NCBI GenBank assembly: GCA_036703295.1
Contig: DATNPJ010000027.1
Location: forward strand, 32,838 to 96,837
Direction: 5' to 3'
DNA: 64,000 nt
Source of the DNA: Coleofasciculaceae cyanobacterium
GTDB taxonomy: Bacteria > Cyanobacteriota > Vampirovibrionia > Vampirovibrionales > Vampirovibrionaceae
Position numbers and translations under genes: made by a program. The notes beneath the pieces were generated by a model, which saw only the letters and a program-made list of their open reading frames with translations, had not been told where the DNA came from and did not search any database. Position 1 is the first letter of the stretch. Every line of letters begins with the position of its first letter. This document shows, piece by piece, positions 11,392-63,423 of this stretch.

Positions 11392-11467
<76 letters not shown>

Positions 11468-27438: not shown

Positions 27439-28956
27439 ATGGGTACAGCAGGTTTTTCCCTCCTTTGGTGGGTTTCGGGATCCCCAATCCGCTTTTTTCA
27501 GCGTTGCCGGGATTATAATGAGATCAGAGGTCAAAAATCTGGGTGCGCCCGGAACGTGCAGAAAACTGAATTGATATTTCAATCGCCGGTCCTGGTGATC
27601 TTGTTGGTACTCGGGACGATCGCGGTCATCGCCGCGGTCTTGTTGCGCAGTCCCAAGGAAAAGGGCATTCTTGGCAAAGAATACAAGATGCCTGCTGGTA
27701 TGCTCCCGGAGGGGCAGGACCAAAACATGGGCTTCATGGAACACCTCAATCGGGGTAACGAGGCACTGGCCCAATACGATTTTGATCAGGCTTTGCTGCA
27801 CTTCCAGGAAGCCGTCAAGCTGAAAAACAGCGACCCTTCCGTGCATTTCAAGATTGGCCGCATCTTTTTGCAGAAAGACGACACCAAAAACGCTATCGTT
27901 GCTTTTCGAAACGTTCTGAATCTGAATCCCAGCCAAATTGAAGCCCATTTTGAGCTTGCTCGCGCTTATCAGACCCAGAAAAACCTGGAATTGGCCCACC
28001 AGGAGCTGAATCAAGCGTTAAGCATCAACCCGGAGCACGAGGAAACGCTCAAGTTCAAGATTAAACTCTATGAGCAGGAAGAGAAGTATCAACACGCGCT
28101 GCCGATTGTGAAAAAGCTGGTGATGCTTTCCCGTCAGCCCATGCAATACCGGGCCAAGGCGGCGGATTACCTGACCCGGATGGGTAAATTCGAAGAAGCC
28201 GTGACCGAATACGAGAGCCTGATCGATCTGGATCCGGACCACCGCTTTCAGTACAAGGGCAAAATCGGACAGGCCTATTTTGAGTTGGGCAACTACACCA
28301 AGGCCATCGAGTTTTTCAAACAGGTGTTGCAGGATCATGGTCCTAATCTGGTGGATACGTCCTATGTCGCAACCCTGAGAAGCCAGATGGCCGCCTCGTT
28401 GTGCAACGAGGGCGTGAGATTCTTCGAGGTTGAGGACTATACGGCGGCTATCCAGCGATACCAGGAAGCCTTGATGCATGACGACGCCAATGTGGACATC
28501 CATTACAACCTGGGCAAGGCGTATTCCCGAATCCGGGACACCCTCAATGCACTCAAGCATTTCGAGCGCGGTATTTCGCTCAATCCGGTAGATGTCAGTT
28601 GCTATTACGAACTGGCGGTTCTGCAAGACGAAAAGGGCATGATCCCCGAAGCCACCACCAACTACCAGAAAGTCCTGGAACTGGATCCCGCCAATGCCAA
28701 TGCAACCTTTGGTTTAGGCACACTGTATGGCGTTCAGGGGAATCTGGAAGAGTCCATCCGGTATCTCAGCGACGCTATTCGGCTGAACCCACAGTTTATT
28801 GACGCTATTTACAACCTGGGTGTGGCCCTGGAACGCAAGAAGGATTTCAACAAGGCCATTCAGATGTATCGCAAGGTACTCAGCCTGGATCAGGAGCATG
28901 AGAAGTCCCGCAGCAACCTGGCCCATATTACGCACGTTCAAAGCCAAAAAAGCTGA
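27439..28956 (+). CDS. TPR-repeat protein with N-terminal membrane anchor
   Basis: Multiple 34-aa TPR units (W/LG/Y-A-F-A-P pattern). Likely start is the GTG near 27556 ('MQKTELIFQSPVLVILLVLGTIAVIAAVLL', single TM). Confidence 0.75.
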   Translation: MGTAGFSLLWWVSGSPIRFFQRCRDYNEIRGQKSGCARNVQKTELIFQSPVLVILLVLGTIAVIAAVLLRSPKEKGILGKEYKMPAGMLPEGQDQNMGFMEHLNRGNEALAQYDFDQALLHFQEAVKLKNSDPSVHFKIGRIFLQKDDTKNAIVAFRNVLNLNPSQIEAHFELARAYQTQKNLELAHQELNQALSINPEHEETLKFKIKLYEQEEKYQHALPIVKKLVMLSRQPMQYRAKAADYLTRMGKFEEAVTEYESLIDLDPDHRFQYKGKIGQAYFELGNYTKAIEFFKQVLQDHGPNLVDTSYVATLRSQMAASLCNEGVRFFEVEDYTAAIQRYQEALMHDDANVDIHYNLGKAYSRIRDTLNALKHFERGISLNPVDVSCYYELAVLQDEKGMIPEATTNYQKVLELDPANANATFGLGTLYGVQGNLEESIRYLSDAIRLNPQFIDAIYNLGVALERKKDFNKAIQMYRKVLSLDQEHEKSRSNLAHITHVQSQKS

Positions 28957-28965
28957 ACTACGGCA

Positions 28966-30162
28966 CTATCCCCGGAAATTCTGCACGCCAGCTTCTTGTG
29001 GGCGCCATGGGTTATAGGGCGGCTGGCTGGCTTTCGGCTGGGCGAGTCTGACCGCCCGCTGTTGCCCCAGCCTAGAGGTCTGTTGCAGACCCTGCCAGGT
29101 TAAGCGTGCATCGTAGTTGCCCAAAGCCGTTTCACGTGCTTTCGCCTGTTCGCGTTGAAATTCGCGCCGGTTCCGCATGGCATTGAACCAGCCTGGGAAC
29201 CAGCCCAGCATACATACGATCAGTATGAAGCCCAGAATGTCTGCGGGCAAACGACGGTTCTGCGCAAATCGAATCACCGAATCCCGAAACGCGCCCTGTG
29301 CATTTTCCGCCATCCTGACGGCCTGCTTGATGCCGGTTTTTTGGGAACTGGCCAGCCATTCCTTCAGTACGTCATCACCGGCTTCCAGGTGTTTGTAGAT
29401 GCCACGGGCCAATGCCATGATTTCTTTCTGGCCTTTTGCGTCGATGGGTGAGGTGGTGGTGACTTGCCGAATCAGTTCCGGCAGGTCCTCCAGGGCAGTA
29501 TCCAGGTGCTTTTTGGCTGCTTCTCCGCCGACTTCGAAAAGACCACCGCTATAAAGTTTTTGCAGGGCTTTTTTCAAGCCCTCGCCACCGCCCTCGCGAA
29601 TCAGACTGACCAGGGCGTGTTCGCTGTCCAGCCGATAGTTGGCGAAACGGGAATAGCTTAAGACCTCACCGCTATGGGGATCGATTAACTGTAGGCCACC
29701 GGTGCCGGGCAGCTTTTGGTAAAACTTGTTGAAAAGCGTGGTGAGGGCTTTCAATCCAAAGACAAACAAGCTGATTGAAATGCTGTCCCGCACCAGGATG
29801 TCCTTGACTTCCCTAAAATCATTGTGGTTCTCCTTGCCGCGTTTCAAGGCGGCATGCAACCGGGCACCCATCATGACCGCAAAAAACAGGAAACAGGCCG
29901 CGCCGATCGGGGCGCTGGTCACCTTCAGTTTTCCTGCTTGCGAGAACTCCCGGAAATCCCAGTCCGCCAGTGTTCGGCCGAATTTAGACAGCGACATAAC
30001 AGCTCGCTGAAACAGGCCTTGGGGTTTTGCGCGGTTCGAGACAAATCGCTCGGTGGCATCCTCGATTTTTTGAGGCAGGGAAAACAGCCAAACTGAGGGA
30101 CGGTGCAAAGCTTTGGTGGTCAAATCAGTGCCGGGCGTGGGACGGAGGGGCGAGATCATCAA
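28966..30162 (-). CDS. Hypothetical bitopic membrane protein, family member 1 of 4
   Basis: 398 aa. Internal hydrophobic helix ('IGAACFLFFAVMMGA'). Near the C-terminus, a helix 'ILGFILIVCMLGWFPGWF' is followed by a basic cluster 'NAMRNRREFQREQ' and a Pro/Gln-rich tail. No known domain. Confidence 0.45.
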   Translation of the reverse strand: MMISPLRPTPGTDLTTKALHRPSVWLFSLPQKIEDATERFVSNRAKPQGLFQRAVMSLSKFGRTLADWDFREFSQAGKLKVTSAPIGAACFLFFAVMMGARLHAALKRGKENHNDFREVKDILVRDSISISLFVFGLKALTTLFNKFYQKLPGTGGLQLIDPHSGEVLSYSRFANYRLDSEHALVSLIREGGGEGLKKALQKLYSGGLFEVGGEAAKKHLDTALEDLPELIRQVTTTSPIDAKGQKEIMALARGIYKHLEAGDDVLKEWLASSQKTGIKQAVRMAENAQGAFRDSVIRFAQNRRLPADILGFILIVCMLGWFPGWFNAMRNRREFQREQAKARETALGNYDARLTWQGLQQTSRLGQQRAVRLAQPKASQPPYNPWRPQEAGVQNFRG

Positions 30163-31646
30163 GCCTGCCCTCCATTATTATTGGCGGCGAAGGGAATAGA
30201 CCTGGGCGCGCCAAGCGGGTTGATGCCTGGGGTTGTCGTCCAAGCGGGAAGGGTTTGAGCGAAGCTCGGGATTCCTGCAGGTACAGGTCTATACTGTTGC
30301 ATGCCGGGTGCCGGACTGGCTGGGGAGTTGTCAGTACTGGGTTGTAGGTTACGGGTGGCCTGGTAAGATTTGCTGCTTTGCGCAAAACGCGTCATGCGTA
30401 TCAGCCAGGCGGTACTCAAAGCGACCAGCGAGAAAACGACCAGTCCCTTCTGGGCGATACTTTGCTTCAAGATGCCTCGCGCGGTTTCAACGAGCGCGGG
30501 GGCCTCCTTGGAAGCCGCCTGGTGTTGCCATAACTTGCGGGGAAACTCACCCCATCGTCGCAGATTCTCTAAAAAGCTTTCCAGTCGGATATTTTCTGCC
30601 GTATGCTCCCGTGACAGTGCCACCCAGGCGTGATCGCTGAATAAAGTCGGTTTGGCGATTGATACGGGCTCTCTCATGCCTTTTCGCATAAACTTGTAAG
30701 GCTCCATGCGGTATTTCCGGTTCACGCTTAACAGTTGTTCCTGAATCTCTTGGCTGATGGTGGTCAGTTGTTTTTCGAGATCGGCGTTAGACAGCGGGGG
30801 ATCGAGCAGGTGGTCCGTCCATGTCTGGAAACGGTTCCGCAAAAAGTCCGTATAGTTGGGCTCTTCCCGTCCGGCCTGGCGAAGCGCCTGCTGAACAGAG
30901 GGATAGTTTTTCAGTTGCTGCCGCAGTACCGGGTCCGCAACCACGGTTTTTTCCAGCAGAGGGTCGACAAAGAGGTTGGCCATATGGTCGGCCACTGCCT
31001 CGCGGTAGCCCTCCTTGCTCAGGGAGGCTTTCGGAGAAGGGAATGCCTCCTGCATGTGCTCAATGAAGCCTTCTCCCAAGCGCTTGAGGGTATTGTAAGG
31101 CATTTCGATCATGTTGCTCAGCGAGTGGCGGCCCACGAAAAATGCCAGGGTCGGGATGGCCAGGATGCCGATGGGTGCGACGATGACTTCTCGTTTAACC
31201 TCCTCCCAGCAGTTTGGCCAGTTGAGCCCTTGCCACGTTTTGGACGCCCAACGCTTGAACTGCTGTGGGAACGGCAGGTTTCGGGTTTCCTCATCCTGAC
31301 GGATATCATATTCCTTGCGGCCGGCCAGCAAGCCGGTAATGAAGCGCCCCGGCCACATACCGCACAAGTCGAGAGAGATGAAACCCCAGAAAAATTTTTC
31401 GGTAATGTTTTTGAAAAGAGGCCGCAGACGATCGTAGAGGGTGTTGATTGTCCTGGAAGCCGTGTGGTTCAGATTGCTGCCAAACCGAAGCTGGTTTGTG
31501 GCTTGCTGAGCCGTGGTTTTTCTCGGCAATGAGTGCACAATCGGACTGGATGGCCGTGTGTTACATCGAATATTCGGATTATTGGATATCAAATCCACCG
31601 AGCACGGGTTCCTTTCACGAGTTGCCTCCATATCAAAGAGCCTCAA
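30159..31646 (-). CDS. Hypothetical bitopic membrane protein, family member 2 of 4
   Basis: 495 aa. Helix 'VIVAPIGILAIPTLAFFVG'. Near the C-terminus, 'LVVFSLVALSTAWLIRMTRF' plus a basic stretch, then a Pro/Ala-rich tail. 4-nt overlap with member 1. Confidence 0.45.
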   Translation of the reverse strand: MRLFDMEATRERNPCSVDLISNNPNIRCNTRPSSPIVHSLPRKTTAQQATNQLRFGSNLNHTASRTINTLYDRLRPLFKNITEKFFWGFISLDLCGMWPGRFITGLLAGRKEYDIRQDEETRNLPFPQQFKRWASKTWQGLNWPNCWEEVKREVIVAPIGILAIPTLAFFVGRHSLSNMIEMPYNTLKRLGEGFIEHMQEAFPSPKASLSKEGYREAVADHMANLFVDPLLEKTVVADPVLRQQLKNYPSVQQALRQAGREEPNYTDFLRNRFQTWTDHLLDPPLSNADLEKQLTTISQEIQEQLLSVNRKYRMEPYKFMRKGMREPVSIAKPTLFSDHAWVALSREHTAENIRLESFLENLRRWGEFPRKLWQHQAASKEAPALVETARGILKQSIAQKGLVVFSLVALSTAWLIRMTRFAQSSKSYQATRNLQPSTDNSPASPAPGMQQYRPVPAGIPSFAQTLPAWTTTPGINPLGAPRSIPFAANNNGGQA

Positions 31647-31792
31647 GGCATCTTGATGCTAGGATGTAAAAAATTATTAATACCCCTTTGCAACCCACGG
31701 GATGGCATTATACACCCAGCAATGTCTCCAAGAAAGTGCGTAACGTTTGGTTAAGCATATAGCACGGTTTCCTACGAGCGGTTTTAATTTGA

Positions 31793-33376
31793 TTGGAAAG
31801 TTTTCTTGGGAATCAGCCACCCTTTGCCAACATGCTAGCACTATCGCCAACAACTCCCCCCTCCGGGAGTATATCGGATTACCAATCCCCTGCCCCCATG
31901 CGGTTTGGCGGGGGGATGGATGCCGTTTCCAGGATGGTTGGCGTGATTGACGGCAACCGGATGATTGAAATGGCCTCGACCGACTTCACGGGTATGTGTG
32001 GCCCCAGGACTTGGATTGAATATCGGGAAAGGGGAGGAGATGCCGCTCGTGAAACCGTCATTCGAGAAGTTGCTGGCGGGATTTGCAACGTGTTCCTGGC
32101 CGGATGGCTCTCCCTGGCAATGCTGGGGATGCTGGGAAATAGCGTCAACCGCTATAACCCGCACGGTCTACCGGGCAAGGCCTGGATCAGTGCCCGCAGT
32201 TTAGAGGCTTTTGGCGGCCTGTATCAGAATATCCTCACCGATACGGCTCATCCGGTGAAGGATCTTTCCGAGGCCCGCGAACGGTTCATCAAGCAGGTGC
32301 TCACGGGGCTGATTTCAGCGGATCAGGCTTCCAGCCGGGTGAGCTTGCCGCAAAGTGCCCGTGAATTGGAACCCCAGGCCCAGGTTAAATATCTGCGGGA
32401 ACTGGTCAAGGATGCGCTACCCGGAGAGGCCTTTGAGAAGCTGTCCGCTGACATCCAGGCGGATAGCCTTGAAAAACAGGCCGAGAAACTGACCGAGGCG
32501 CTCCATCAGGCGAACAACGGCAAACTGACCCGGGAAGCCCAAGAGAGGCTGTATCGGTACTTCTCATTGAAGGCTGGTTCCGATGTCGTCGGCGTTCAGG
32601 GCACCAACCATTTCAACAGGCTGGCCATGGCTCAGGTTCTGGAGGAAAAGGCATACCTGGAGGAAGAGGCCCGGCGGCTGAATCAGCCGGTGACTGATGC
32701 CCTGAAGCATTTTGACGAGGTGAAGGAGTTTAAAGCTGCCCGGCTAAGGCTGAGCCTGGCGGACTTGGATGGTACGGAACGCGAGTTTTTGAAACAGGTC
32801 AGTGGGATTGCCCAATCCGGAAAGCTGACCAGCGCGGTGCATTTGTATGGACCGGACAACCGGTTGCTCCTGAAAACGGGCTTGCTGAAAGATACCGGGC
32901 GGGATGCCCTGTTCGGTGAGCTGAAGCACTTTCTGGAGCAGTTTGTCGACCGGGCCGGCCATGGCATTGACGAAAAGGCGGCTGACTGGAAGCAACAGGT
33001 CCTGCAGACACTGAACCGTCCAAGCGAAAAGCGCGGGTTGTGGAGCAGGCTGATGCCTCAGGCGGATGAGGGCCTGCTGCGAAGCGCGCTGAAAACTAAG
33101 ACCGCCTACACCTGGATTCCGATGCTGGGCGCCGCCCTGGTAGGGATGTCTGTCGGCTTTTTCAACAACTGGCTCACCAAAAAACGTAATGGCGGCAAGG
33201 TCTCCTATCCCGGCGACGGTCCTCCCACCGCCTCTGCGACTTCTGCACCCGTCAATTCCCAAGCGCCAAACGGTCTGGTTTCCAGTGCCGGTGTGGGTAG
33301 CGGCTTAAAACGTTCCAGAGGAGCCTTTGCCCAGTTTCAGGCTCAACGCTTCGGAAACGGAGGCATTCTGGCATGA
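31793..33376 (+). CDS. Hypothetical bitopic membrane protein, family member 3 of 4
   Basis: 527 aa. Helix 'ICNVFLAGWLSLAMLGML', a long coiled-coil-like central region, then 'WIPMLGAALVGMSVGFFNNWLTKKRNGG' followed by a Pro/Ser/Ala-rich tail. Confidence 0.45.
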   Translation: MESFLGNQPPFANMLALSPTTPPSGSISDYQSPAPMRFGGGMDAVSRMVGVIDGNRMIEMASTDFTGMCGPRTWIEYRERGGDAARETVIREVAGGICNVFLAGWLSLAMLGMLGNSVNRYNPHGLPGKAWISARSLEAFGGLYQNILTDTAHPVKDLSEARERFIKQVLTGLISADQASSRVSLPQSARELEPQAQVKYLRELVKDALPGEAFEKLSADIQADSLEKQAEKLTEALHQANNGKLTREAQERLYRYFSLKAGSDVVGVQGTNHFNRLAMAQVLEEKAYLEEEARRLNQPVTDALKHFDEVKEFKAARLRLSLADLDGTEREFLKQVSGIAQSGKLTSAVHLYGPDNRLLLKTGLLKDTGRDALFGELKHFLEQFVDRAGHGIDEKAADWKQQVLQTLNRPSEKRGLWSRLMPQADEGLLRSALKTKTAYTWIPMLGAALVGMSVGFFNNWLTKKRNGGKVSYPGDGPPTASATSAPVNSQAPNGLVSSAGVGSGLKRSRGAFAQFQAQRFGNGGILA

Positions 33377-34266
33377 TGACGCGACCGCTTGCTTCCAAGC
33401 CGTATCCTCAAACGCTAACGTCTTCCGCCGAAAAACAGACGGCCACTCCCCTGCAATTCGGATTCCGTCCGGTGGCTCCTGCAAAAATCGCAGCCAATCG
33501 GCTCATCCGGTTCCTGGACTTTCATGAGCTGGCCGCTACCACCGTGCCGCAGGTTATGGTGATTTATGCGGGCATTATTCTCTCCCGCTTCCTCAGTGCC
33601 ATCCAGCGGATGCGCGAGGATCCGCAACATCGGACCAATGAAATCCGGGAGACGGCTACCCGTGATCCGTTGGGCTATGCCCTGTGGATTTTCGGCATCC
33701 CCTTGCTCCAGCGGGTTTTCCTGAGATTCTGCATTCCCAAGAAATACCGCGAGTCCTTGACTGATGCGAGTATGGCGCCCGAGAGTACGCAAGGGCTCAG
33801 GGGCAAGCTCCGTTGGCTGAATCGGAAGCTGAACCCCTTGCGCTGGTCCATTCCTAGCCGGGAGCAGGTGGATAACCAGATGCGCTATGCCCTGGAGAAA
33901 ATCAAGAAAGCCGGTTTCGGCGAGGGCAGCGCGGAGTTCCAGAAGGTGCATCATTTCTATGAAAAAGGCATGCTCCGCTGGCGGAATATGGCGACCCTGC
34001 TGGGCTGGACGGTGACGATTGGCCTGCTGGGGGTCGGGGTGATGCTGTTCAATATTCAAGCCACCCGAAAACGTAACGCCCAACAGATGAAGTCGGCTGC
34101 CTCGCCAGGCAGAGCCCCTGTTAATCCTGCTTTCGGCAACCCTGCTGTCAGCCGGTATTTGCCGCCGCTACAGCCTGCCAACCGGGTTGCTTTTGCGGCT
34201 TCTCCAGCACGCATCCGGCAAGCGGGCGGGTATCCCACCGGAACCCTTCCCGGACGTCCTGAATAA
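33373..34266 (+). CDS. Hypothetical bitopic membrane protein, family member 4 of 4
   Basis: 297 aa. Helices 'VMVIYAGIILSRFL' and 'YALWIFGIPLL'. Near the C-terminus, 'LLGWTVTIGLLGVGVMLFNIQATRKRNAQQ' followed by a Pro/Ala-rich tail. 4-nt overlap with member 3. Confidence 0.45.
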   Translation: MMTRPLASKPYPQTLTSSAEKQTATPLQFGFRPVAPAKIAANRLIRFLDFHELAATTVPQVMVIYAGIILSRFLSAIQRMREDPQHRTNEIRETATRDPLGYALWIFGIPLLQRVFLRFCIPKKYRESLTDASMAPESTQGLRGKLRWLNRKLNPLRWSIPSREQVDNQMRYALEKIKKAGFGEGSAEFQKVHHFYEKGMLRWRNMATLLGWTVTIGLLGVGVMLFNIQATRKRNAQQMKSAASPGRAPVNPAFGNPAVSRYLPPLQPANRVAFAASPARIRQAGGYPTGTLPGRPE

Positions 34267-34299: not shown

Positions 34300-35298
34300 C
34301 TAGCCGCCGGTCCCGGATTTAGGCAGCTTGTCCTTCGCGGCACGCGCTTCTTTCTCCTCCCGGCGCTCCTGTCGCCCGGCGAAAATGCGCTGAATCGGGT
34401 TGGGCAAAGCATCCACCGAGAGGAACTCGGTTAATCGTTCTCCGAGAGGCACTTTTCTGACCAGAGTGGTATCCATGGCCACCTGGTAAAGCCGCGCCAG
34501 GGTCTTTTTCAGCTCTTCCGCGTTCGCCATTTTTTCCAGCTTGCCGTCTTCCACCAGGGAAATCACCCCGGTCTCCTCGGATACCACGATGCAGCGGCTA
34601 TCCGACAGTTCGGTCAGGCCAATGGCCGCCCGGTGACGGGTGCCATACTGCCAGCTGAGCTTGGGGTCTTCAGTTAGCGGCAGCAGCACACCGGCGGCCA
34701 CCACCCGGTTATCCGGGCCAATGACTACCGCGCCGTCGTGTAATGGTGTGTTGTGGTGAAAAATAGTCAGCAGTAATTCCGTGCTCAGCTTGGCATCCAG
34801 GGGCGTCCCCATTTCCAGGTAGTCTCCGCCGTGGCTGCTGGGCGCTTCCAGTACAATCAACGCGCCGCGCTTGGCCTTGCTTAAAAAGTGCACGGTCTCC
34901 GAAAGCTCCTGGACCAGGAATTCCGCTTTCTGTTCCTCGGGAGACGCAGTGGGCGGTGTGACTCCGAACAGTTCCCCCTGTCCTAAAAACAGTAGCATCC
35001 GCCGAAGTTCCGGCTGGAAGATGACGATCAGGCCGATGAACAGAATCTGGATACCGGCGGCGAACACATTTTCCAGCATGGGCATCTTGAAAATGTTGGC
35101 CAGAATCAGCATGCCCACAAAGATCAGCAGCATGATGAACAGGCCTTTCAGCAGCTGTTCGGCATGGCTGCGGCGGATAAAGCGCACGTAGATGAAGTAG
35201 ATGATGCCCGTGAGGACGGCAATCTGGAACAGGAATTTCAGCAGGGGCATAATCTGCCCCTGGCGCATTGCCCATTCCTGACCGAACCAATCCATCAT
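34300..35298 (-). CDS. cdaA: Diadenylate cyclase (c-di-AMP synthase), membrane-anchored CdaA type
   Basis: 332 aa. Three N-terminal TM helices. DAC-domain motifs 'TPLHDGAVVIG' (DGA) and 'YGTRHRAAIGLTE' (RHR). Confidence 0.8.
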   Translation of the reverse strand: MMDWFGQEWAMRQGQIMPLLKFLFQIAVLTGIIYFIYVRFIRRSHAEQLLKGLFIMLLIFVGMLILANIFKMPMLENVFAAGIQILFIGLIVIFQPELRRMLLFLGQGELFGVTPPTASPEEQKAEFLVQELSETVHFLSKAKRGALIVLEAPSSHGGDYLEMGTPLDAKLSTELLLTIFHHNTPLHDGAVVIGPDNRVVAAGVLLPLTEDPKLSWQYGTRHRAAIGLTELSDSRCIVVSEETGVISLVEDGKLEKMANAEELKKTLARLYQVAMDTTLVRKVPLGERLTEFLSVDALPNPIQRIFAGRQERREEKEARAAKDKLPKSGTGG

Positions 35299-35455
35299 CG
35301 TTGCGTCTATCTCCGGTCTCCTCGCATGATTGGTGTCTCAGTACGGAAAAACAGCCTTGCTTGAATCATCCCTCACCCAAAACATGGCTTAATCTCATTC
35401 TACATTACCTGCGGGCTCCCCGCCAGCTTCGATGAGAGTTGCCGGATAGTCCCCT

Positions 35456-36859
35456 CTAGTAGATGGATGCCGACGAGGACTCCGGCGTCTTGCGCAGGTG
35501 AGATGGAATCAAGTCCTGCTGGATGACGGTGTCGTAGGTTTCTCGCTGTACCAGCACGTGCGTTCTTCCGTGTTCAAGCAGGACGACCGCCGGGCGCGGG
35601 AAACGGTTGTAGTTGGAAGCCATCGAGTAATTGTAGGCCCCCGTCCCAAAGACGATAATTATGTCTCCGGTTTCCACTTGCGGAGTCGGCAGGCTTCGAA
35701 TCAGAATATCGCCGGATTCGCAGTACTTGCCTACCACATTGACGGTTTCCGCCACAGGCGCATTGATTTTGTTGCCCACAATGGCCGTATACTGGGCCTG
35801 GTAAAGGGCCGGGCGGATATTATCCCCCATGCCGCCGTCCACGGCCACAAACTTGCGCAGGCCGGGCACTTCCTTGATGCTGCCCACCGTGTAGAGGGTA
35901 ATACCGGCGGTTGCCACCATACTGCGGCCCGGCTCCATGAGCAGCCGGGGCAGGGGATAGTTCAATCGTTTGGCGTAGGCGTTCAATTTTTCCACGATTC
36001 GGTGGATCGCCACGGGCACGTCCGGCGGATCATCCTGGCCGGTATACATCACACCTAGGCCGCCGCCAAGATCCAGGTCGTCCAGCACCAAGCCGTCATA
36101 TTGGGCTCGAATGTTAAAGTAGATGTTCAGCATGATTTCGATCAAATCTTCGTAAGGCTTCACCTCGAAGATTTGAGAGCCGATATGCGCATGCAGGCCT
36201 CTCAGCTGAATGGTTTCAGCATACTTCCTGATGATCAGATCCATCGCCTGGGGCAGTTGGCTCAAATCAAAACCGAACTTGCTATCCGCCTGGCCGGTTT
36301 TGATGTAGTCGTGGGTATGGCATTCGATGCCGGGGGTGATCCGTAGCAGGACATCCACTTTCTTGCCCTTGCCGGCGGCGACATCATGGATGAGCTCCAG
36401 GTCGTGGAAGTTGTCTGCGGAAATGCGCCCGATGCCGTGATGGACGGCCAATTCGATTTCCTCGCGGCTTTTGTTGTTGCCGTTGAACAAGACCCGCTCC
36501 ATCGGAAAGCCCGCCTGGACCGCCGTATAGATTTCCCCGCCGGAAACCACGTCCAGGCCCATCCCTTCCTGTTCCATCAGCTTCACCAGGCCCATGTTCA
36601 TGTTGGCCTTGCAGGCATACAGTGGCAGGCTTTCTCCCGGATAAATATCCCGCAGGGTTTCCCGGTAGGCCTGAGCCGAAGCGCGTAAAGTCGCCTCATC
36701 CAGCACAAAAAGCGGCGTGCCATAAGTTTGCGCCAATTCCAGCAGATTAATCCCGCCCACCATCGGAACGTTTTCCTCGTTCACGGTGTAGGTCATCGGC
36801 TTCAGGGAGACATTCGGCGCGGGAACGTTGGGCATTCCCGGATACATCTGGCTGCTCAT
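35456..36859 (-). CDS. lysA: Diaminopimelate decarboxylase (Orn/DAP/Arg decarboxylase family 2)
   Basis: 467 aa. PLP-fold N-terminal barrel and a C-terminal block 'CESGDIL'-type motif ('KYCESGDILIRS'). Length typical for LysA. Confidence 0.65.
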   Translation of the reverse strand: MSSQMYPGMPNVPAPNVSLKPMTYTVNEENVPMVGGINLLELAQTYGTPLFVLDEATLRASAQAYRETLRDIYPGESLPLYACKANMNMGLVKLMEQEGMGLDVVSGGEIYTAVQAGFPMERVLFNGNNKSREEIELAVHHGIGRISADNFHDLELIHDVAAGKGKKVDVLLRITPGIECHTHDYIKTGQADSKFGFDLSQLPQAMDLIIRKYAETIQLRGLHAHIGSQIFEVKPYEDLIEIMLNIYFNIRAQYDGLVLDDLDLGGGLGVMYTGQDDPPDVPVAIHRIVEKLNAYAKRLNYPLPRLLMEPGRSMVATAGITLYTVGSIKEVPGLRKFVAVDGGMGDNIRPALYQAQYTAIVGNKINAPVAETVNVVGKYCESGDILIRSLPTPQVETGDIIIVFGTGAYNYSMASNYNRFPRPAVVLLEHGRTHVLVQRETYDTVIQQDLIPSHLRKTPESSSASIY

Positions 36860-36969: not shown

Positions 36970-37106
36970 CCGGCCTGCCGCCGGGATCGTGAGAAAGCCC
37001 GATGTCCGCCAAGCAATTTGAGCCGAATCTCTGTTTTTATTTGTTTAGTGTGTGTTAGTGGCACGTTTGCGTGCCAAGCTATCGAACTGTAAAGAGAGAG
37101 TGTATT

Positions 37107-37529
37107 ATGGCCACATTTGCGCCGAATTCAATGATGACGTTTACAAACCCGTTCCTGAACGGCAGTTCGGGCAGGAATCCATTGGCTGCTATCAATGTGT
37201 TGAACACATGGCGATTCGGAGGCGCAGCTTCCACAGTGGAATTGCAGGGCAATGCCTTCAACCAGGGGATTGGCGTGGGGGCATCTCCATTCGGACAAAC
37301 GGGCGTGCCGCCGATGAATGGCGGTTTTACAGGCTTTATGCCGCAAACCCAGGGATTTCCCACCGGCGCTTTCGATGCCGGGTTTATGAATCCGGGCTTT
37401 GCGTGGAACGCGGGGTTCTTCAATAATGGCGGAATTGACACCGGGTTTCTGAATGCCGGTTTCAGCCCGTTCACACAGTTCCCTTCAGTGTCGCAGCCCT
37501 CGTTTGGGCCGATGGGTTTCTTCGTATAA
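37107..37529 (+). CDS. Gly/Phe-repeat low-complexity protein (hypothetical, possibly secreted)
   Basis: ATG at 37107 preceded by a GAGAG RBS. Product is rich in GF/FG dipeptides ('GFTGFMPQTQGFPTGAFDAGFMNPGFAWNAGFFNNGGIDTGFLNAGFSPF'). Confidence 0.45.
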   Translation: MATFAPNSMMTFTNPFLNGSSGRNPLAAINVLNTWRFGGAASTVELQGNAFNQGIGVGASPFGQTGVPPMNGGFTGFMPQTQGFPTGAFDAGFMNPGFAWNAGFFNNGGIDTGFLNAGFSPFTQFPSVSQPSFGPMGFFV

Positions 37530-47956: not shown

Positions 47957-48233
47957 TGGCGTTGCTGGAAAGCGAATGCTGTCTAGCCCAATCTATCCAA
48001 CAAATGCAGCCTTAAACGGTTCCTTTTCTTGGTCTCAGGTCAACCGTAAGTATAGAAGGCGGTATGGAGGATAAAAGTCTAGTTCCTCCGTAGACTTTTG
48101 GGCGCTTTCTTGGAGACTTTAAGTATTAAGAATTGTAAATTTATCTAAAAGCCAAGACAGTTATTATTTATGAGGTGTGTTGTTGGGGTACAGCTTATAA
48201 CTTCACACGGACAAGCCGGAAGCATAGAACCCT

Positions 48234-49172
48234 ATGAACATAAATAGCCCTATGAACTTTCCAGTTGGAAGACATCATCTTGTATCTCCAAAATTTGGAT
48301 GGAAAAAGCAAGATTTAGAGAAAGACCCTTCGCGATGGCTGATTCATTTGGGAGTCGGCAAGGATAAAGACGTCATCTGGTCCAAAAACCGTCTGATACC
48401 CACCCAAAAACTAATTCATAAAGCATACAATATGCTCAACAGAACTTCCCTGGAGACTCCAGGTTTTCTGGTCATTGATAATATTGGCGACTTTGTTCAT
48501 ACTGAAAAAGGGCGACAACGCTTTCAAAATGAACTGTATCAAGGTGTCAACGACCTTTTTGAAAGAGCTATTCAAAAGGAAAGTACCTCCTCTCACATTC
48601 GTTCAGAACATGTTGAGACGAGAGAATTCAGACAAAAAGACGGCGCATTCAAACAGCCTTGTGGCTTCATGAGCGCTGCAAAGTTTACGTTAAAACGTTT
48701 TCACCATGATTCTCACACGATAATCGCATCCCATATCTATGACAAAGTTTATGGCATCAAAGGCGGCCAATTCATTCTTTTTGATGATTTGCAATATGCA
48801 AAAGATAAGAATGTAGCTGGCGGGCATACATCTCTCTATGAGCTTGAGCAAAACAAGCATGAATTCCCTTGTTCTCCGGTCTTAAAAGAAAAGTATAAAG
48901 ATCGAATTGGTGATTACACTTTCGAAATTGACACCATTCCTGAAAAAGGCAGCAATGGAAGACGCCAACCAAAGTTGATCATGTTTAATAACTTGTTTGA
49001 TGGCGTTGCTCATGGTGCAAGAGAGTTTGCAAGAATGTCACCACACTGGATGAGAAGTTATGCCCGGATTTTCTCCAGGCTATCCCGACACGGTGAAGAG
49101 CTCATCTGGGATAAGCTTCCGTTCCATCACCCTGATCATCACAACGCCAGCCGCTTAGAAGCATCATCATAG
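48234..49172 (+). CDS. Hypothetical protein (AT-rich ORFan)
   Basis: 312 aa, His-rich ('HHDSHTIIASHIYDK', 'FHHPDHHNAS'). Compositionally distinct from core genes. No recognisable family. Confidence 0.45.
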   Translation: MNINSPMNFPVGRHHLVSPKFGWKKQDLEKDPSRWLIHLGVGKDKDVIWSKNRLIPTQKLIHKAYNMLNRTSLETPGFLVIDNIGDFVHTEKGRQRFQNELYQGVNDLFERAIQKESTSSHIRSEHVETREFRQKDGAFKQPCGFMSAAKFTLKRFHHDSHTIIASHIYDKVYGIKGGQFILFDDLQYAKDKNVAGGHTSLYELEQNKHEFPCSPVLKEKYKDRIGDYTFEIDTIPEKGSNGRRQPKLIMFNNLFDGVAHGAREFARMSPHWMRSYARIFSRLSRHGEELIWDKLPFHHPDHHNASRLEASS

Positions 49173-49184
49173 AAAGAGTCTGCC

Positions 49185-49922
49185 ATGAGAATACCCAGCT
49201 ATAATTTTCAATCTTTTTCCAATGCTTCAAGCAGACATCATTCTCTGGCTGCTCATTTTTATTCGCAAGACCGCGTTTTCTTTGGAGGTATTCCTTTACA
49301 ACAACAAGCTTTAAGAGCGCTGGAAAAGGAGAATGTTCAGGGTTTTAACAAAATAAAACAACGTTTGGACAAACAAAAAACACCACTTGATTTATCAGGA
49401 TATGATTTTTCAGGCAAGATGCTACCTGGAATTGACTTGTCTGGCCTGAATTTGACGGGTGCCATTTTTACGAATGGTACAGATCTGACCAATGCAAAGC
49501 TCAGGAAAGCCCTGTTGCTTCGTATTGTCACAGACAATTCTACAACATGGACCGGAACGCCGTTTGATTCCACTCTCCCAATTAATGGGCCAAGCCTTAA
49601 AACCCTCATACAGAAATATAACTTCGAAGTAGAAGATCACTGTCTCGTTGGCTATCGAACCAATGGCTCTGTTAAAGGTGGTTTTACTTATGAGCTAGGG
49701 AAAAATTACAAATCGGATTTGTTCAGTCGTGATAAACAAAGCAGACACCACGGCTTATGGTTTTATCCTTCTACTGATATTGTGCGCCGACTGCATCCTG
49801 GTGAACCGATTATCAAAGTGCTTGTGCCCTATGGGGATTCTAACAAAACCAATTTAGTCAAGGGCGATTTGGATTTTCGTGCGCCAGAATTAACAGTATC
49901 AGATTTTCTTGGGGAAAACTGA
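49185..49922 (+). CDS. Pentapeptide-repeat protein
   Basis: 245 aa. Central 'DLSGYDFSGKMLPGIDLSGLNLTGAIFTNGTDLTNAKL' is a run of A(D/N)LxX pentapeptide repeats. AT-rich coding. Starts 13 nt after the previous ORF. Confidence 0.6.
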   Translation: MRIPSYNFQSFSNASSRHHSLAAHFYSQDRVFFGGIPLQQQALRALEKENVQGFNKIKQRLDKQKTPLDLSGYDFSGKMLPGIDLSGLNLTGAIFTNGTDLTNAKLRKALLLRIVTDNSTTWTGTPFDSTLPINGPSLKTLIQKYNFEVEDHCLVGYRTNGSVKGGFTYELGKNYKSDLFSRDKQSRHHGLWFYPSTDIVRRLHPGEPIIKVLVPYGDSNKTNLVKGDLDFRAPELTVSDFLGEN

Positions 49923-50175
49923 CAGATCTCCACAGATCCTTTATCTTCCCTATTTTTGGTGATTATATACTTAACGTACCTAGTCTTGAGGCGGCGCTCC
50001 ATATGGATCGGTTTTGCCATTGGGCTGGGAGAAGCTATCCACAAAGGCAAAATCAGGGCCTATGACGAATATCTTCGGTGTTGCCCCTCATTAGACTCGA
50101 ACCTCCTAAAACACAGAAATATAAACCGTTTCACCCACTATTTCAAATATCCCGGCTTTCCGGAAAAATCACGAA

Positions 50176-55527: not shown

Positions 55528-56139
55528 TTAGGCATTTTGGTCAAGGTGTGTGGAGATATGGCGGGACTTAATTCTGTCATAAGCGTCTTCTCTGGCTTGA
55601 GGAGACAAGGGAGCCTGGGTGTTTTTGCCCAATAACTCATCGGCGAAGCGTTTTACCTGGTTCCTGAAGAACTGGTTGATTTGTGCATTTGTGGATTCAG
55701 GAGATGAATCTTTTTCCCAAATCGGTACGTGGGGGTATTCCTTGTTCCAAGTTCTGCCAGGCGTCAAATTCTGCTTGCCACGGTATAAATCGGCTTCCAG
55801 CCGATACCAATCGCCCTGATCCCCTTCTCCTTTATTCCAGACCCCCATGGGGTGCGCTTTCACAACGATCCGGTCGGTTTTGTTGTTGCCGATCTTCCTT
55901 AGTGTTTTACGCCAGGAGGGGGACTGGAGCGAGGTGTCATTCAGTGCATTCTGAATAATCTTGTCCAGGGGGCTCGTGGTATTGCCATCCCCGACTTGAA
56001 CTTTCTTAAGTGAGTCATCAAGCACAATCTTTGCGCCGAACTGGGGCGGGTGAGCAGTGGGTCGGATCCTATTCATCGGTTCTTCCTTTCTTCTTTCAAT
56101 CAGACTTCTTAAAGCGCTGGGCGGCAAGGGCAACGTCAT
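55528..56139 (-). CDS. Hypothetical protein, tandem paralogue 2 (QFGAKI...GNNxTD family)
   Basis: 203 aa. Shares 'PPQFGAKIVLDDSLKKVQV...TS...ALND...SWRKTLRKIGNNKTD...YRLEADLYRGKQN' blocks with the upstream ORF. Confidence 0.45.
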   Translation of the reverse strand: MTLPLPPSALRSLIERRKEEPMNRIRPTAHPPQFGAKIVLDDSLKKVQVGDGNTTSPLDKIIQNALNDTSLQSPSWRKTLRKIGNNKTDRIVVKAHPMGVWNKGEGDQGDWYRLEADLYRGKQNLTPGRTWNKEYPHVPIWEKDSSPESTNAQINQFFRNQVKRFADELLGKNTQAPLSPQAREDAYDRIKSRHISTHLDQNA

Positions 56140-56581
56140 TCACCCAGGTTTGTATATTAGGTATTAGACTTGATCGTCTTAACGGTTCCAACGGCAGCAT
56201 TGTTCTCACCACATTGGCGTGATTCCAAGCTCCATGCCAGGAAGTCGTCTTGGCTGTTTGTTGATTACGCTTATATCGGGCTTCAACCGTATAAAAATTC
56301 TTTTTGTAGGGCTCGTCCCTAATGCTCAGCGCCACCGTATCCGTGTCATTGTTGCCGGCTGCTTCAATCAATGTCCGGGCGGACGGTTGTCCCTGCAACC
56401 CGTCGGGTTGCACCTTGGCCAACGCCCGATTCACCAAGTGGGCCACCGATGTGACACCTTCGTCTCGCGTGTAGACTTTTGCTTTAATGATTGATTGATC
56501 AAACTGAATCTTGGCGCCGAACTGGAGATTGGAAGGCATATTACGAACACCCGGCATTGGAGGACCCTCATTATCTTGCAT
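56096..56581 (-). CDS. Hypothetical protein, tandem paralogue 1 (QFGAKI...GNNxTD family)
   Basis: 161 aa. 'LQFGAKIQFDQSIIKAKVY...TS...ALAKV...SARTLIEAAGNNDTD...YTVEARYKRNQQ'. Overlaps paralogue 2 by 44 nt, so one of the two starts is probably internal. Confidence 0.45.
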   Translation of the reverse strand: MQDNEGPPMPGVRNMPSNLQFGAKIQFDQSIIKAKVYTRDEGVTSVAHLVNRALAKVQPDGLQGQPSARTLIEAAGNNDTDTVALSIRDEPYKKNFYTVEARYKRNQQTAKTTSWHGAWNHANVVRTMLPLEPLRRSSLIPNIQTWVNDVALAAQRFKKSD

Positions 56582-57186: not shown

Positions 57187-57861
57187 GTGGTTAGATACCT
57201 ATGCACTTGGACGATTAATCTTGGAGTATTCCCCATGAAACTCAAATCTTCCACCTATACTTCTCCTAACTGCCCACTCCGTTACGGCCAAAGCAGACCG
57301 CAGACGATCCAGTTTGGCGGTCATGGGGACTCTTACGAGCCTACCTTGAAGCAAAAATACATTCCGGTAACGGTTGGAAAAGGGAAAAACAAGAAGACGG
57401 TTTTCTGCATGCCCAACAGCCCGTTTGGAAACCCCTGCGAAGACTGGTCCGAGGTGGCCAAAAGCGTCCAAAAGCAATTGGAAGCTTATCAGAACTTGAA
57501 AGACCCTACCCATAGCGTGGATATTCCGGAAAGCGAATTGGCGCGAGACGCTGAGGATAGCCATTCACCGAAAAATCTGTTTTTGGGTTGTGGTTTGGAA
57601 GCGGTCGTTCAAAACCAGCAAGCTACACTGATGGCGGGTCCCAACTTCCGAGCCCTCTATATTCCCGAAGAACATTGCATGTACATCGTGAACCGATATC
57701 ATGCCGAGAAGCCGGGTGATGGCGTCAAAGTTTTCCTGAACAAACAAAATGACCCCAACCGCTTTGAGCTGAAAAATTTATACCTCAACAACCCTTTTTT
57801 TAACGTGCATGACTATTTTGCGTGGCAGGTCTATTGCTGGGCAAATCATTTAGCGAAATAG
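57187..57861 (+). CDS. Hypothetical protein
   Basis: Probable start at 'MKLKSS' (about 57235). Contains 'QFGGHGDS', weakly reminiscent of the QFGAKI motif of the tandem paralogues. Cys-containing. No recognisable family. Confidence 0.35.
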   Translation: MVRYLCTWTINLGVFPMKLKSSTYTSPNCPLRYGQSRPQTIQFGGHGDSYEPTLKQKYIPVTVGKGKNKKTVFCMPNSPFGNPCEDWSEVAKSVQKQLEAYQNLKDPTHSVDIPESELARDAEDSHSPKNLFLGCGLEAVVQNQQATLMAGPNFRALYIPEEHCMYIVNRYHAEKPGDGVKVFLNKQNDPNRFELKNLYLNNPFFNVHDYFAWQVYCWANHLAK

Positions 57862-62796: not shown

Positions 62797-63423
62797 CTAG
62801 GCAAAGGCGATGGTTCTTTGAGTCGATGGGGGCTTGAAATCCACTTGAACGGCATCGAGGTGTATCTTCCCCGCCTGAGCGGCCTGCTTCAGCGCACTCA
62901 AATTCTTCTGATACTCGGGACCTTTCGCCCCATAAAATTCCTGATTATAGTCATCTGTTTTATCCACCCATTCTCCATTCTCAAACTGGAGAATATACCA
63001 GGGACGGAAGCCCGCCTTCTTTAAGGTGCCAGGCTCATCTTTCAGCCGAATATCCAGAAGGAGATTCTCATTACACGCATCAATATCCTGCTGCACGACT
63101 GCTTTTGCTTCCGGTTTCATCTTCTGATCCGATTGGATTGCGTCCCTCACCGTTTTACGAATCTCCTGGGGGGATGGCACATCTAATTGATCGAGTTTTT
63201 CTGTCAACGCCTTAATCTGCTGATTGTCTGAAGATACAGCGACCCCGCCGGGAGACGTAACAATCATGCCAGGCTGTTCTGACATGCCAGGCAGTGAAGA
63301 TTTGTGAGTATCCGGGACGCCATATTCAAACCCTCTGAGATACATGCTATTGGGGTATAGCCGCTCGTCCCGGCGAGTACGAGGCACGGTAAAAAGCCCG
63401 AATTGAAGTGGTCTGGCTTGCAT
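62797..63423 (-). CDS. Hypothetical protein
   Basis: 208 aa ORF upstream of, and co-oriented with, the phosphatidyltransferase and cysS genes. No recognisable family. Confidence 0.35.
   Translation of the reverse strand: MQARPLQFGLFTVPRTRRDERLYPNSMYLRGFEYGVPDTHKSSLPGMSEQPGMIVTSPGGVAVSSDNQQIKALTEKLDQLDVPSPQEIRKTVRDAIQSDQKMKPEAKAVVQQDIDACNENLLLDIRLKDEPGTLKKAGFRPWYILQFENGEWVDKTDDYNQEFYGAKGPEYQKNLSALKQAAQAGKIHLDAVQVDFKPPSTQRTIAFA

Follow-up and report, generated by a model that had tools for sequence, protein, structure and literature searches.

A divergent quartet of paired long and short membrane proteins in the Vampirovibrionia, a candidate inner-membrane complex

Near the middle of a 64,000 nucleotide (nt) stretch of contig DATNPJ010000027.1 (assembly GCA_036703295.1, positions 32,838 to 96,837), here termed the window, four consecutive open reading frames (ORFs A to D) raise the question of whether they encode a single system and, if so, of what kind. 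The ORFs lie as two pairs, B-A and C-D, the members of each overlapping by 4 nt and the pairs diverging from one intergenic region; both this layout and the coordinates and lengths of 398, 495, 527 and 297 amino acids (aa) given in an earlier note on this DNA were recovered. By profile comparison the four products are members of one superfamily, comprising two long (B and C) and two short (A and D) forms, and their genes make up what appears to be a previously undescribed module, seen so far only in the Vampirovibrionia (Melainabacteria). The genes and the region from which they diverge are:

28966..30162, minus strand: gene A, short form, 398-aa ORF, homologue of D, with orthologues at 13 loci
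30159..31646, minus strand: gene B, long form, 495-aa ORF, homologue of C
31793..33376, plus strand: gene C, long form, 527-aa ORF
33373..34266, plus strand: gene D, short form, 297 aa, homologue of A
31632..31831, no strand: divergent intergenic (promoter) region, measured from the probable starts of B and C

Products A to D show no match above cut-off to the models of Pfam, NCBIfam, PADLOC or PHROGs, and none reaches the curated gathering cut-off of any Pfam-A or NCBIfam family. The top match is that of LapA_dom to A (E 0.003; 17.9 bits against a cut-off of 28 bits), all others having E-values of 0.09 or more. The PADLOC and PHROG models likewise recognise no anti-phage defence or phage family in A to D or in the natural C-D fusion protein P0077, no Pfam family is found in ten distant family members, and a profile of 77 family sequences has no relative among the PDB sequences (best E 0.06, irrelevant). 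The products of the other family members are always named 'hypothetical protein', and no description of these four proteins was found in the literature. The earlier note had pointed to placement in characterised families as one outcome that would speak against it, and the profile searches place none of the four. Its term 'domain-less' holds in the sense that no known domain is matched, but the central regions of the proteins are predicted to be folded.

The relationship among the four products emerges from profile comparison. A and D form the only significant pair in plain pairwise BLAST (25% identity across 157 aa by BLASTP); hhalign relates them with a probability of 93-95%, and their hidden Markov models (HMMs) match reciprocally, down to E 7e-12, in two collinear segments. 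A deep profile of C matches the B protein of locus L019 at 1e-9 over nearly its full length and two further B proteins at 1e-4 to 2e-3, and the N-terminal 130 columns of C and B are aligned by hhalign with E 6e-5. The same deep profile matches nine D proteins (9e-7 to 1e-3), again in two segments, the C to D relationship being weaker but collinear. A reversed-sequence control of the cross-family profile searches produced a single match (E 0.009). In every cross-family match the first aligned segment is an RE..R[D/E] stretch entering the first full membrane helix, and the second is the last membrane helix with a terminal Asn (or Asn/Thr), followed by basic residues. Both segments are found in A to D and their orthologues, and the RE..R[D/E] and Asn motifs are kept across all four families at under 15-25% identity. 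B and C further share an F-x-G motif approximately 26 residues upstream of D..GM..PR (found in 85 and 98, respectively, of 124 C-family sequences), and a conserved Asp in the helix preceding the first membrane span is restricted to the long forms. On account of these HMM and hhalign cross-matches and their control, A, B, C and D are assigned to a single superfamily. The claim of a paralogous family in the earlier note is thereby upheld, the similarity exceeding that of composition (reciprocal A/D, C to B and C to D matches), but the four are not equivalent paralogues, being two long and two short forms. The simplest history is that of a tandem long-short pair which was later duplicated in inverted orientation.

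Orthologous loci, found with HMMs built from the first orthologues, show that the divergent arrangement of the B-A and C-D pairs recurs at 13 other loci of Vampirovibrionales and related Melainabacteria (L001, L004-L012 and L019-L021), and both here and at these 13 a long gene is immediately followed by a short one. The 4-nt overlap between C and D is preserved at 12 of the 14 loci, and all four genes occur at each of the nine Vampirovibrionales genome loci with enough flanking sequence (L004-L012). Three distant metagenomic contigs, L019, L020 and L021 (guanine plus cytosine (GC) contents of 0.44, 0.54 and 0.47), encode a complete divergent quartet among largely different neighbours, the quartet itself being the constant element. 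Such preservation of all four proteins, with order and orientation intact, greatly exceeds what chance would produce. When 1.84 billion cluster representatives were searched exhaustively with a profile of the C alignment, 195 proteins were recovered at E 0.001 or less, 92 of them at 1e-30 or less; word-indexed searches had returned only 6, 3 and 3 relatives and underestimated the size of the family. In a scan of one genome per species, relatives were found only in metagenome-assembled genomes (MAGs) of Vampirovibrionales and Melainabacteria, in Vampirovibrio chlorellavorus and in one unclassified 'Cyanobacteria bacterium'. The named sources of all members are restricted to Vampirovibrio, Vampirovibrionales, Melainabacteria and unclassified Cyanobacteria MAGs, which bears out the earlier suggestion of a lineage-specific family. 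The C product is identical to a protein of a third-party-annotated MAG labelled 'Coleofasciculaceae cyanobacterium'. With flagellar genes in the window and relatives among the Vampirovibrionales and Melainabacteria, this label looks wrong.

Long and short forms are also joined in single chains. C and D profile matches occur together in 26 of 158 proteins (150 listed hits together with earlier A- and C-family hits), and among the 150 listed representatives at least 23 clearly join C and D in a single chain. The low-GC locus L015 encodes two tandem C-D fusions as well as an unfused B-like gene followed by a short-form gene, while in L018 a second long-short fusion lies 8 kilobases (kb) from its C-D fusion. 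Gene fusion is classical evidence for a joint physical unit, and C and D are therefore taken to act as one. The presence of two or more long-short units per genome in L015 and L018 suggests that the units work together. Directly after the tandem fusions in L015 (8252-9255) are genes for YtxH, DUF948 and YtxH proteins, small membrane-anchored proteins of the stress type, which are not found at the other loci.

The AlphaFold2 (AF2) model of the natural fusion P0077, built with 77 aligned sequences, has a mean predicted local distance difference test score (pLDDT) of 82.6 and a predicted template modelling score (pTM) of 0.82 over 674 residues, and from the latter it follows that the C and D halves are predicted to pack in a defined way. 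Each half begins with short N-terminal helices. A long helix then runs from the charged motif into the membrane span and leads to an exposed domain that is mostly helical but has small beta-hairpins (in the C half one of its helices has 52 residues); a very long last helix and a disordered linker or tail complete the half. In the D half, the first hydrophobic helix has only 18 residues and is separated by three residues from the point where the next helix begins with its charged motif, and is for this reason read as a membrane-proximal 'foot' rather than a full span. On this reading a subunit would cross the membrane fully twice and a pair four times. The exposed domains, which are elongated helical bundles, differ widely in size (approximately 85 aa in D up to approximately 320 aa in C); their only structural echoes, weak ones, are among BAR-type and other helical bundles, and as modelled the structure resembles nothing solved. 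In the AF2 model of B, made with 12 orthologues, the central domain reaches a pLDDT of 85-94, and B and the C half share the same order of secondary structure, namely a long helix, a beta-hairpin, two helices and the last transmembrane (TM) helix.

Read together with hydropathy, the models give the following anatomy (positions in aa):

A, N-terminal part: hydrophobic helix 81-103; NDFREVKDILVRD motif 114-126; first full TM helix approximately 127-146
A, C-terminal part: exposed helical domain approximately 147-304; last TM helix 305-327 (..GWFPGWFNAMRNRREF); disordered tail 328-398
B, N-terminal part: RFG 54-56; helix with D93..GMWPGR101; B-specific insert 109-147; KREV and first full TM helix 151-175
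B, C-terminal part: folded helical domain with beta-hairpin approximately 176-396; last TM helix 397-420; tail 421-495, ending GGQA
C, N-terminal part: RFGGG 37-41 (nt 31901-31915); D64..GM..PR72 foot; RG.D..RET..RE 80-92; first full TM helix 93-116
C, middle: exposed helical domain 119-438, including KHFLEQFVDRA 378-388; last TM helix 439-461
C, C-terminal end: NNWLTKKRNGGKVSYPGDGPP 457-478; tail up to 527, ending RFGNGGILA
D, N-terminal part: LQFG 27-30; hydrophobic helix 53-77; NEIRETATRD 89-98; first full TM helix 99-121
D, C-terminal part: small exposed domain 122-207; last TM helix 208-228 (..LLGVGVMLFNIQATRKRN); tail 229-297

A C-terminal hydrophobic helix is present in all four proteins by hydropathy, preceded by one earlier hydrophobic segment in B and C and by two in A and D. 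Every protein thus has at least two membrane helices and the description 'bitopic' in the earlier note is wrong, while the single earlier segment that it gave to each applies to B and C but not to A and D. The shared C-terminal architecture stands as regards the helix and the tail; the Lys/Arg cluster after the last helix is present in A, C and D but weaker in B, which has a conserved AFWAQNHGTYQATR instead. The tails beyond the last helix are 40-130 aa long, disordered and little conserved, and in the A and B families, for which the composition was computed, they are rich in Ala, Pro and Gln. Both long forms end in a conserved GG-x-A terminus (...GGQA in B and ...GGI[LI]A in C). Membrane helices around one large exposed domain, followed by a disordered tail, are also what the structure prediction returns, in agreement with the overall plan that had been proposed.

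No subunit has a signal-like N-terminal hydrophobic segment by hydropathy. Since C and D are fused in single chains, the tail of C and the N-terminus of D must lie on the same side of the membrane. Counts of Lys plus Arg in the 15-residue flanks, 'in' versus 'out', are 7.4/6.2 for A, 4.3/3.8 for B, 6.6/3.8 for C and 6.4/6.0 for D, and favour an orientation with both termini inside in all four families, clearly for C and slightly for the others. From the lack of a signal segment, the fusion constraint and these counts it can be deduced, with moderate confidence, that the feet and tails are cytoplasmic and the helical domains periplasmic.

These features suggest a class-specific core hetero-oligomeric complex of the inner membrane, composed of two long-short dimers and serving as an envelope scaffold or hub, a reading to which we assign a probability of roughly 0.4. 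Each subunit would consist of an N-terminal F-x-G segment, a charged foot and the first membrane helix, then the mostly helical exposed domain and a last helix ending in Asn/Thr and a basic cluster, with a disordered tail; the foot would comprise the RE..R[D/E] motif directly before the first full helix and, in the long forms, also D..GM..PR. Each long subunit would pair with the short subunit translated next (B with A and C with D) to give a four-helix membrane bundle, and the two pairs would join into one hetero-oligomer in the inner membrane, whose termini, feet and tails would be cytoplasmic and whose helical domains would be periplasmic. As the core of an envelope scaffold or hub, the complex might hold periplasmic helical stalks anchored in the inner membrane, and its cytoplasmic face and tail motifs (...GGQA in B and ...GGI[LI]A in C) might dock partners. 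The function taken by itself is proposed tentatively. A structural or organising role is favoured by the core, vertically inherited and lineage-restricted distribution, by the long and poorly conserved disordered tails with conserved ends in the long subunits, and by the elongated helical exposed domains of very variable length.

Several observations weigh against the proposed scaffold. Conservation is strongest not in the exposed domains or tails but in membrane-proximal polar residues (D, PR, R, E, RE, N and T), the nearly invariant residues of P0077 (D48, P55, R56, R64, E71, R75, E76, N418 and T422) being polar and situated at helix ends, and this pattern would suit a conduit or a catalytic site at least as well as a scaffold. 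Across the loci compared the quartet has no informative gene as a constant companion, and for A, B and D the positive-inside signal is weak. The model of B is moderate overall (mean pLDDT 62.8, pTM 0.53) and its N-terminal membrane part is not confident, as would be expected if B needs A.

The strongest alternative is a heteromeric channel- or transporter-like conduit, in which four paralogous two-helix subunits would surround a pore. The exposed domains would then sense or gate, and the cytoplasmic mouth would be formed by the Asn/Thr ring together with the charged foot. Every subunit has two full TM helices around a large exposed domain and termini that are both predicted to lie inside, the subunits would be heteromers of paralogues, and the conserved residues just listed, like the RE..R[D/E] and Asn motifs which persist in all four families despite low identity, are those that such a mouth might use. 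The conserved charges, however, are mostly located in the predicted cytoplasmic extension of the helix rather than mid-membrane, channels do not usually show a core, vertically inherited and lineage-restricted distribution, and Asn in membrane helices can merely hold helices together. A conduit is thus unlikely on balance but retains a substantial chance. We allow a small chance to a bolder proposal, that the quartet is the membrane core of an unrecognised machine, maybe specific to the whole class Vampirovibrionia, which would form a pseudo-symmetric hetero-tetramer with a new fold. Such a tetramer might let something pass through the inner membrane, or might take the place of an envelope or cell-cycle machine, and its F-G and GG-x-A motifs might form a lineage-specific docking code shared with orphan proteins.

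The remaining alternatives depend on the neighbouring genes, of which the nearest is:

27439..28956, plus strand: membrane-anchored TPR protein gene, a possible accessory not shown to belong to the quartet, convergent with A

In the Vampirovibrionales the synteny on this side of the quartet comprises fliP, fliO, a fliN-like gene, rpsT, two heptosyltransferase genes and the TPR gene, and on the other side cdaA and lysA. Because this wider neighbourhood is conserved too, its synteny alone says little on function, and the association with flagellar or TPR genes envisaged in the earlier note is not established, the neighbourhood being ordinary conserved synteny within the Vampirovibrionales. The flagellar and lipopolysaccharide (LPS) neighbourhood is not present at L020, L021 or L015-L018. 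The TPR gene adjoins the quartet in the Vampirovibrionales and in L019, and L003, L014 and L018 have other TPR genes close to family genes. All named NCBIfam protein-family models fall below their curated cut-offs against the TPR protein, including those of LapB (60 bits against cut-offs of 363 bits or more), and one generic TPR domain model passes.

A further candidate, which we consider quite unlikely, is that the quartet assists LPS or outer-envelope biogenesis together with the adjacent TPR protein, as LapA/LapB or a polysaccharide co-polymerase (PCP) would. The quartet adjoins the TM-anchored TPR gene and GT9 heptosyltransferase genes in the Vampirovibrionales and in L019, where MlaEFD genes are also nearby, L003, L016, L017 and L018 have TPR or glycoconjugate genes close to family genes, and two TM helices around a helical, predicted periplasmic domain correspond to the Wzz/PCP layout. 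The weak LapA_dom match of A, which also points this way, remains at 17.9 of the required 28 bits and covers just a TM helix and a basic stretch, and no Wzz, GNVR or LapB model matches above its cut-off. The TPR gene, convergent with A, is not co-transcribed with the quartet, the TPR and GT9 neighbours are missing at L020 and L021, and such genes are common enough to be present within 10 kb by chance. In L019 (1-3158), the quartet, its TPR neighbour and the GT9 heptosyltransferase gene adjoin mlaE, an ABC ATPase gene and mlaD, with secD/secF 5 kb away on the opposite side, an envelope-lipid context seen in this lineage only.

A motility scaffold, for instance a lineage-specific part of a flagellar or type IV pilus basal structure, appears improbable. 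Flagellar genes do occur in the window (fliO/P/N-like genes at 22-24.6 kb, and flhB/flhA and flgE by sequence reading), motA/motB lie 4 kb from the family genes in L003, and pilin-like or Tad-like genes are present in L015 and L017. The flagellar genes of the window, however, belong to the general synteny, with rpsT, two LPS genes and the TPR gene lying between them and the quartet, no flagellar genes are found within 8-10 kb in L015-L021, and none of the four proteins matches a flagellar or pilus family. Very improbable is a receptor or translocon for lineage-specific proteins with an N-terminal [LP]-x-[RKQ]-F-G motif. In B, C and D, as well as in the A protein of Vampirovibrio, this motif comes before the conserved core, and it is also found near the N-terminus of five or six orphan soluble proteins of the window, where [RKQH]FG occurs within the first 80 aa in 12 of 67 genes against approximately two expected; yet it is internal in the fusions, and hence part of the fold rather than a leader, the module has no ATPase or other energy source, the motif is not enriched among neighbours at other loci, and the proposal is otherwise pure speculation. 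That the four are unrelated or spurious membrane ORFs of similar composition has next to no chance and is refuted, for although plain BLAST pairs only A with D and the first small-profile comparisons of B and C were weak, the four protein sequences and their order are maintained in many genomes, C has 195 relatives, deep profiles link the families where reversed controls do not, and the AF2 model of P0077 is confident.

On the far side of D, lysA is followed by the diadenylate cyclase gene cdaA (34300-36859, minus strand), convergent with D at a distance of 33 nt. The adjacency of cdaA to the C-D pair is kept in the distant locus L013 and missing in L003 and L015-L021. A functional link between the quartet and cdaA was considered and rejected, since cdaA is convergent with D and forms a unit with lysA, which it follows on the opposite strand. 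The adjacency of lysA and cdaA is usual in cyanobacteria, and that of cdaA and the quartet is probably plain synteny.

The true starts of three genes are probably slightly internal to the listed ORFs, judging by their conservation and annotation, giving products of 397 aa for A, 490 aa for B (ATG 31631) and 514 aa for C (ATG 31832). The JGI start for A is the second codon, ATG 30159 (397 aa), and both ATG 31832 (Met14 of C) and ATG 31631 (Met6 of B) are kept in an alignment with the related contig L001. The public (NCBI) record of the C product, of 480 aa, starts downstream of the RFGG motif conserved in the orthologues, and this start looks wrong. The intergenic region of 146 nt (31647-31792) previously given is correct for the longest ORFs, but with the probable internal starts it extends to approximately 200 nt. 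Blocks conserved with L001 are located at 31679-31691, 31704-31714 (GGCATTATACA), 31740-31765 and 31780-31789. A promoter and terminator consensus scan found no more sites than in shuffled sequences and none inside the intergenic region, and Rfam, run on the whole window, gave no match in this region and no riboswitch close to the quartet or cdaA; a tRNA gene (11392-11464, plus strand) is its sole match across the window.

The orphan proteins with an N-terminal [LP]-x-[RKQ]-F-G motif like that of the quartet are apparently soluble and are encoded at 48234-49172 (plus), 55528-56139 (minus), 56096-56581 (minus), 57187-57861 (plus), 62797-63423 (minus) and 37071-37529 (plus), with the variants SPKFGW, PPQFGA, NLQFGA, TIQFGG, RPLQFGL and TWRFGGA among the six. 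Five of them have no Pfam family at E 0.01 or less, while 37071-37529 has only a sub-threshold match to Pentapeptide_2; those at 55528 and 56096 are paralogues (E 7e-7). Housekeeping neighbours at other loci show no enrichment of the motif, which in the orphans may be a lineage-specific short linear motif. The 152-aa ORF at 37071-37529, a putative gene, has an extremely high content of Gly, Phe and Asn and contains numerous GF/FG dipeptides (..NAGFFNNGGIDTGFLNAGFSPF..), and lies between lysA and a glycogen-debranching-like gene without a counterpart at related loci. The stretch 48001-50000 has a GC content of 0.41, compared with approximately 0.55 elsewhere, and its orphan genes include one for an FG-motif protein and one for a pentapeptide-repeat protein (49185-49922). 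Recent acquisition of this stretch as an island may be the explanation. For the GGQA and GGILA ends of B and C, a reading as Pup-like or degron signals was considered, as was an FG-nucleoporin-like reading of the tails; neither has support.

Among non-photosynthetic bacteria the Vampirovibrionia are the closest relatives of the cyanobacteria, and very little is known of how their cells work. The paralogy, the long-short pairing and the fusions are solid new facts, and a four-gene module of fixed order, with 195 family representatives and a confident model, offers a concrete and tractable starting point. The module could bring to light a new type of inner-membrane complex and a lineage marker and, if it is core envelope machinery, would bear on the envelope organisation of the cyanobacterial ancestor. 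The natural fusions are ready-made single-chain constructs for structural work.

Among known systems, proteins of the MotB/ExbD/TolR type (stator or 5:2 motor subunits) have one TM helix, in which an Asp is essential, and an OmpA-like or related domain in the periplasm, and they work with MotA/ExbB; the quartet differs in the number of helices and shows no MotA_ExbB, OmpA or ExbD match. FtsX/MacB-type (type VII ABC) permeases have an FtsX domain with four TM helices, the periplasmic domain being inserted between TM1 and TM2, and work with an ABC ATPase, and BAR-domain proteins form a dimeric three-helix crescent; the four proteins were found to belong to neither group, membership of the latter requiring significant structural similarity. 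As in LapA (PF06305)/LapB systems, a TM-anchored TPR gene and LPS core genes are adjacent, but LapA is a small inner-membrane protein of approximately 100 aa, encoded upstream of lapB, against the 398 aa of A, in which the sub-threshold match is confined to residues 309-344, and the TPR neighbour is far below the LapB cut-offs. The Wzz/Wzc PCP family shares with the quartet two TM helices and an elongated helical domain, periplasmic in the former and predicted to be so in the latter; PCP proteins are of the inner membrane, as the quartet is predicted to be, and LPS or polysaccharide genes are sometimes near the quartet, but no Wzz (PF02706) or GNVR model assigns it to this family. PilN/PilO and GspL/GspM are paralogous neighbours of the inner membrane that form heterodimers with helical periplasmic parts, in which a short conserved cytoplasmic N-terminal motif docks a partner. 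Unlike the quartet, they have a single helix and a ferredoxin-like periplasmic domain, and A to D match none of these families. The subunits of the eukaryotic ENaC/ASIC/P2X channels are paralogues with two helices around a large exposed domain and cytoplasmic termini, a short conserved motif before the first helix and proline-rich C-terminal tails. Their architecture is like that of the quartet, which has no sequence or fold similarity to them and almost wholly helical exposed domains. SecD and SecF, with six helices each and an RND-type fold, are similar to the quartet in neither sequence nor fold, but as adjacent paralogous membrane genes that form one unit and are fused in some lineages, they follow the same evolutionary pattern.

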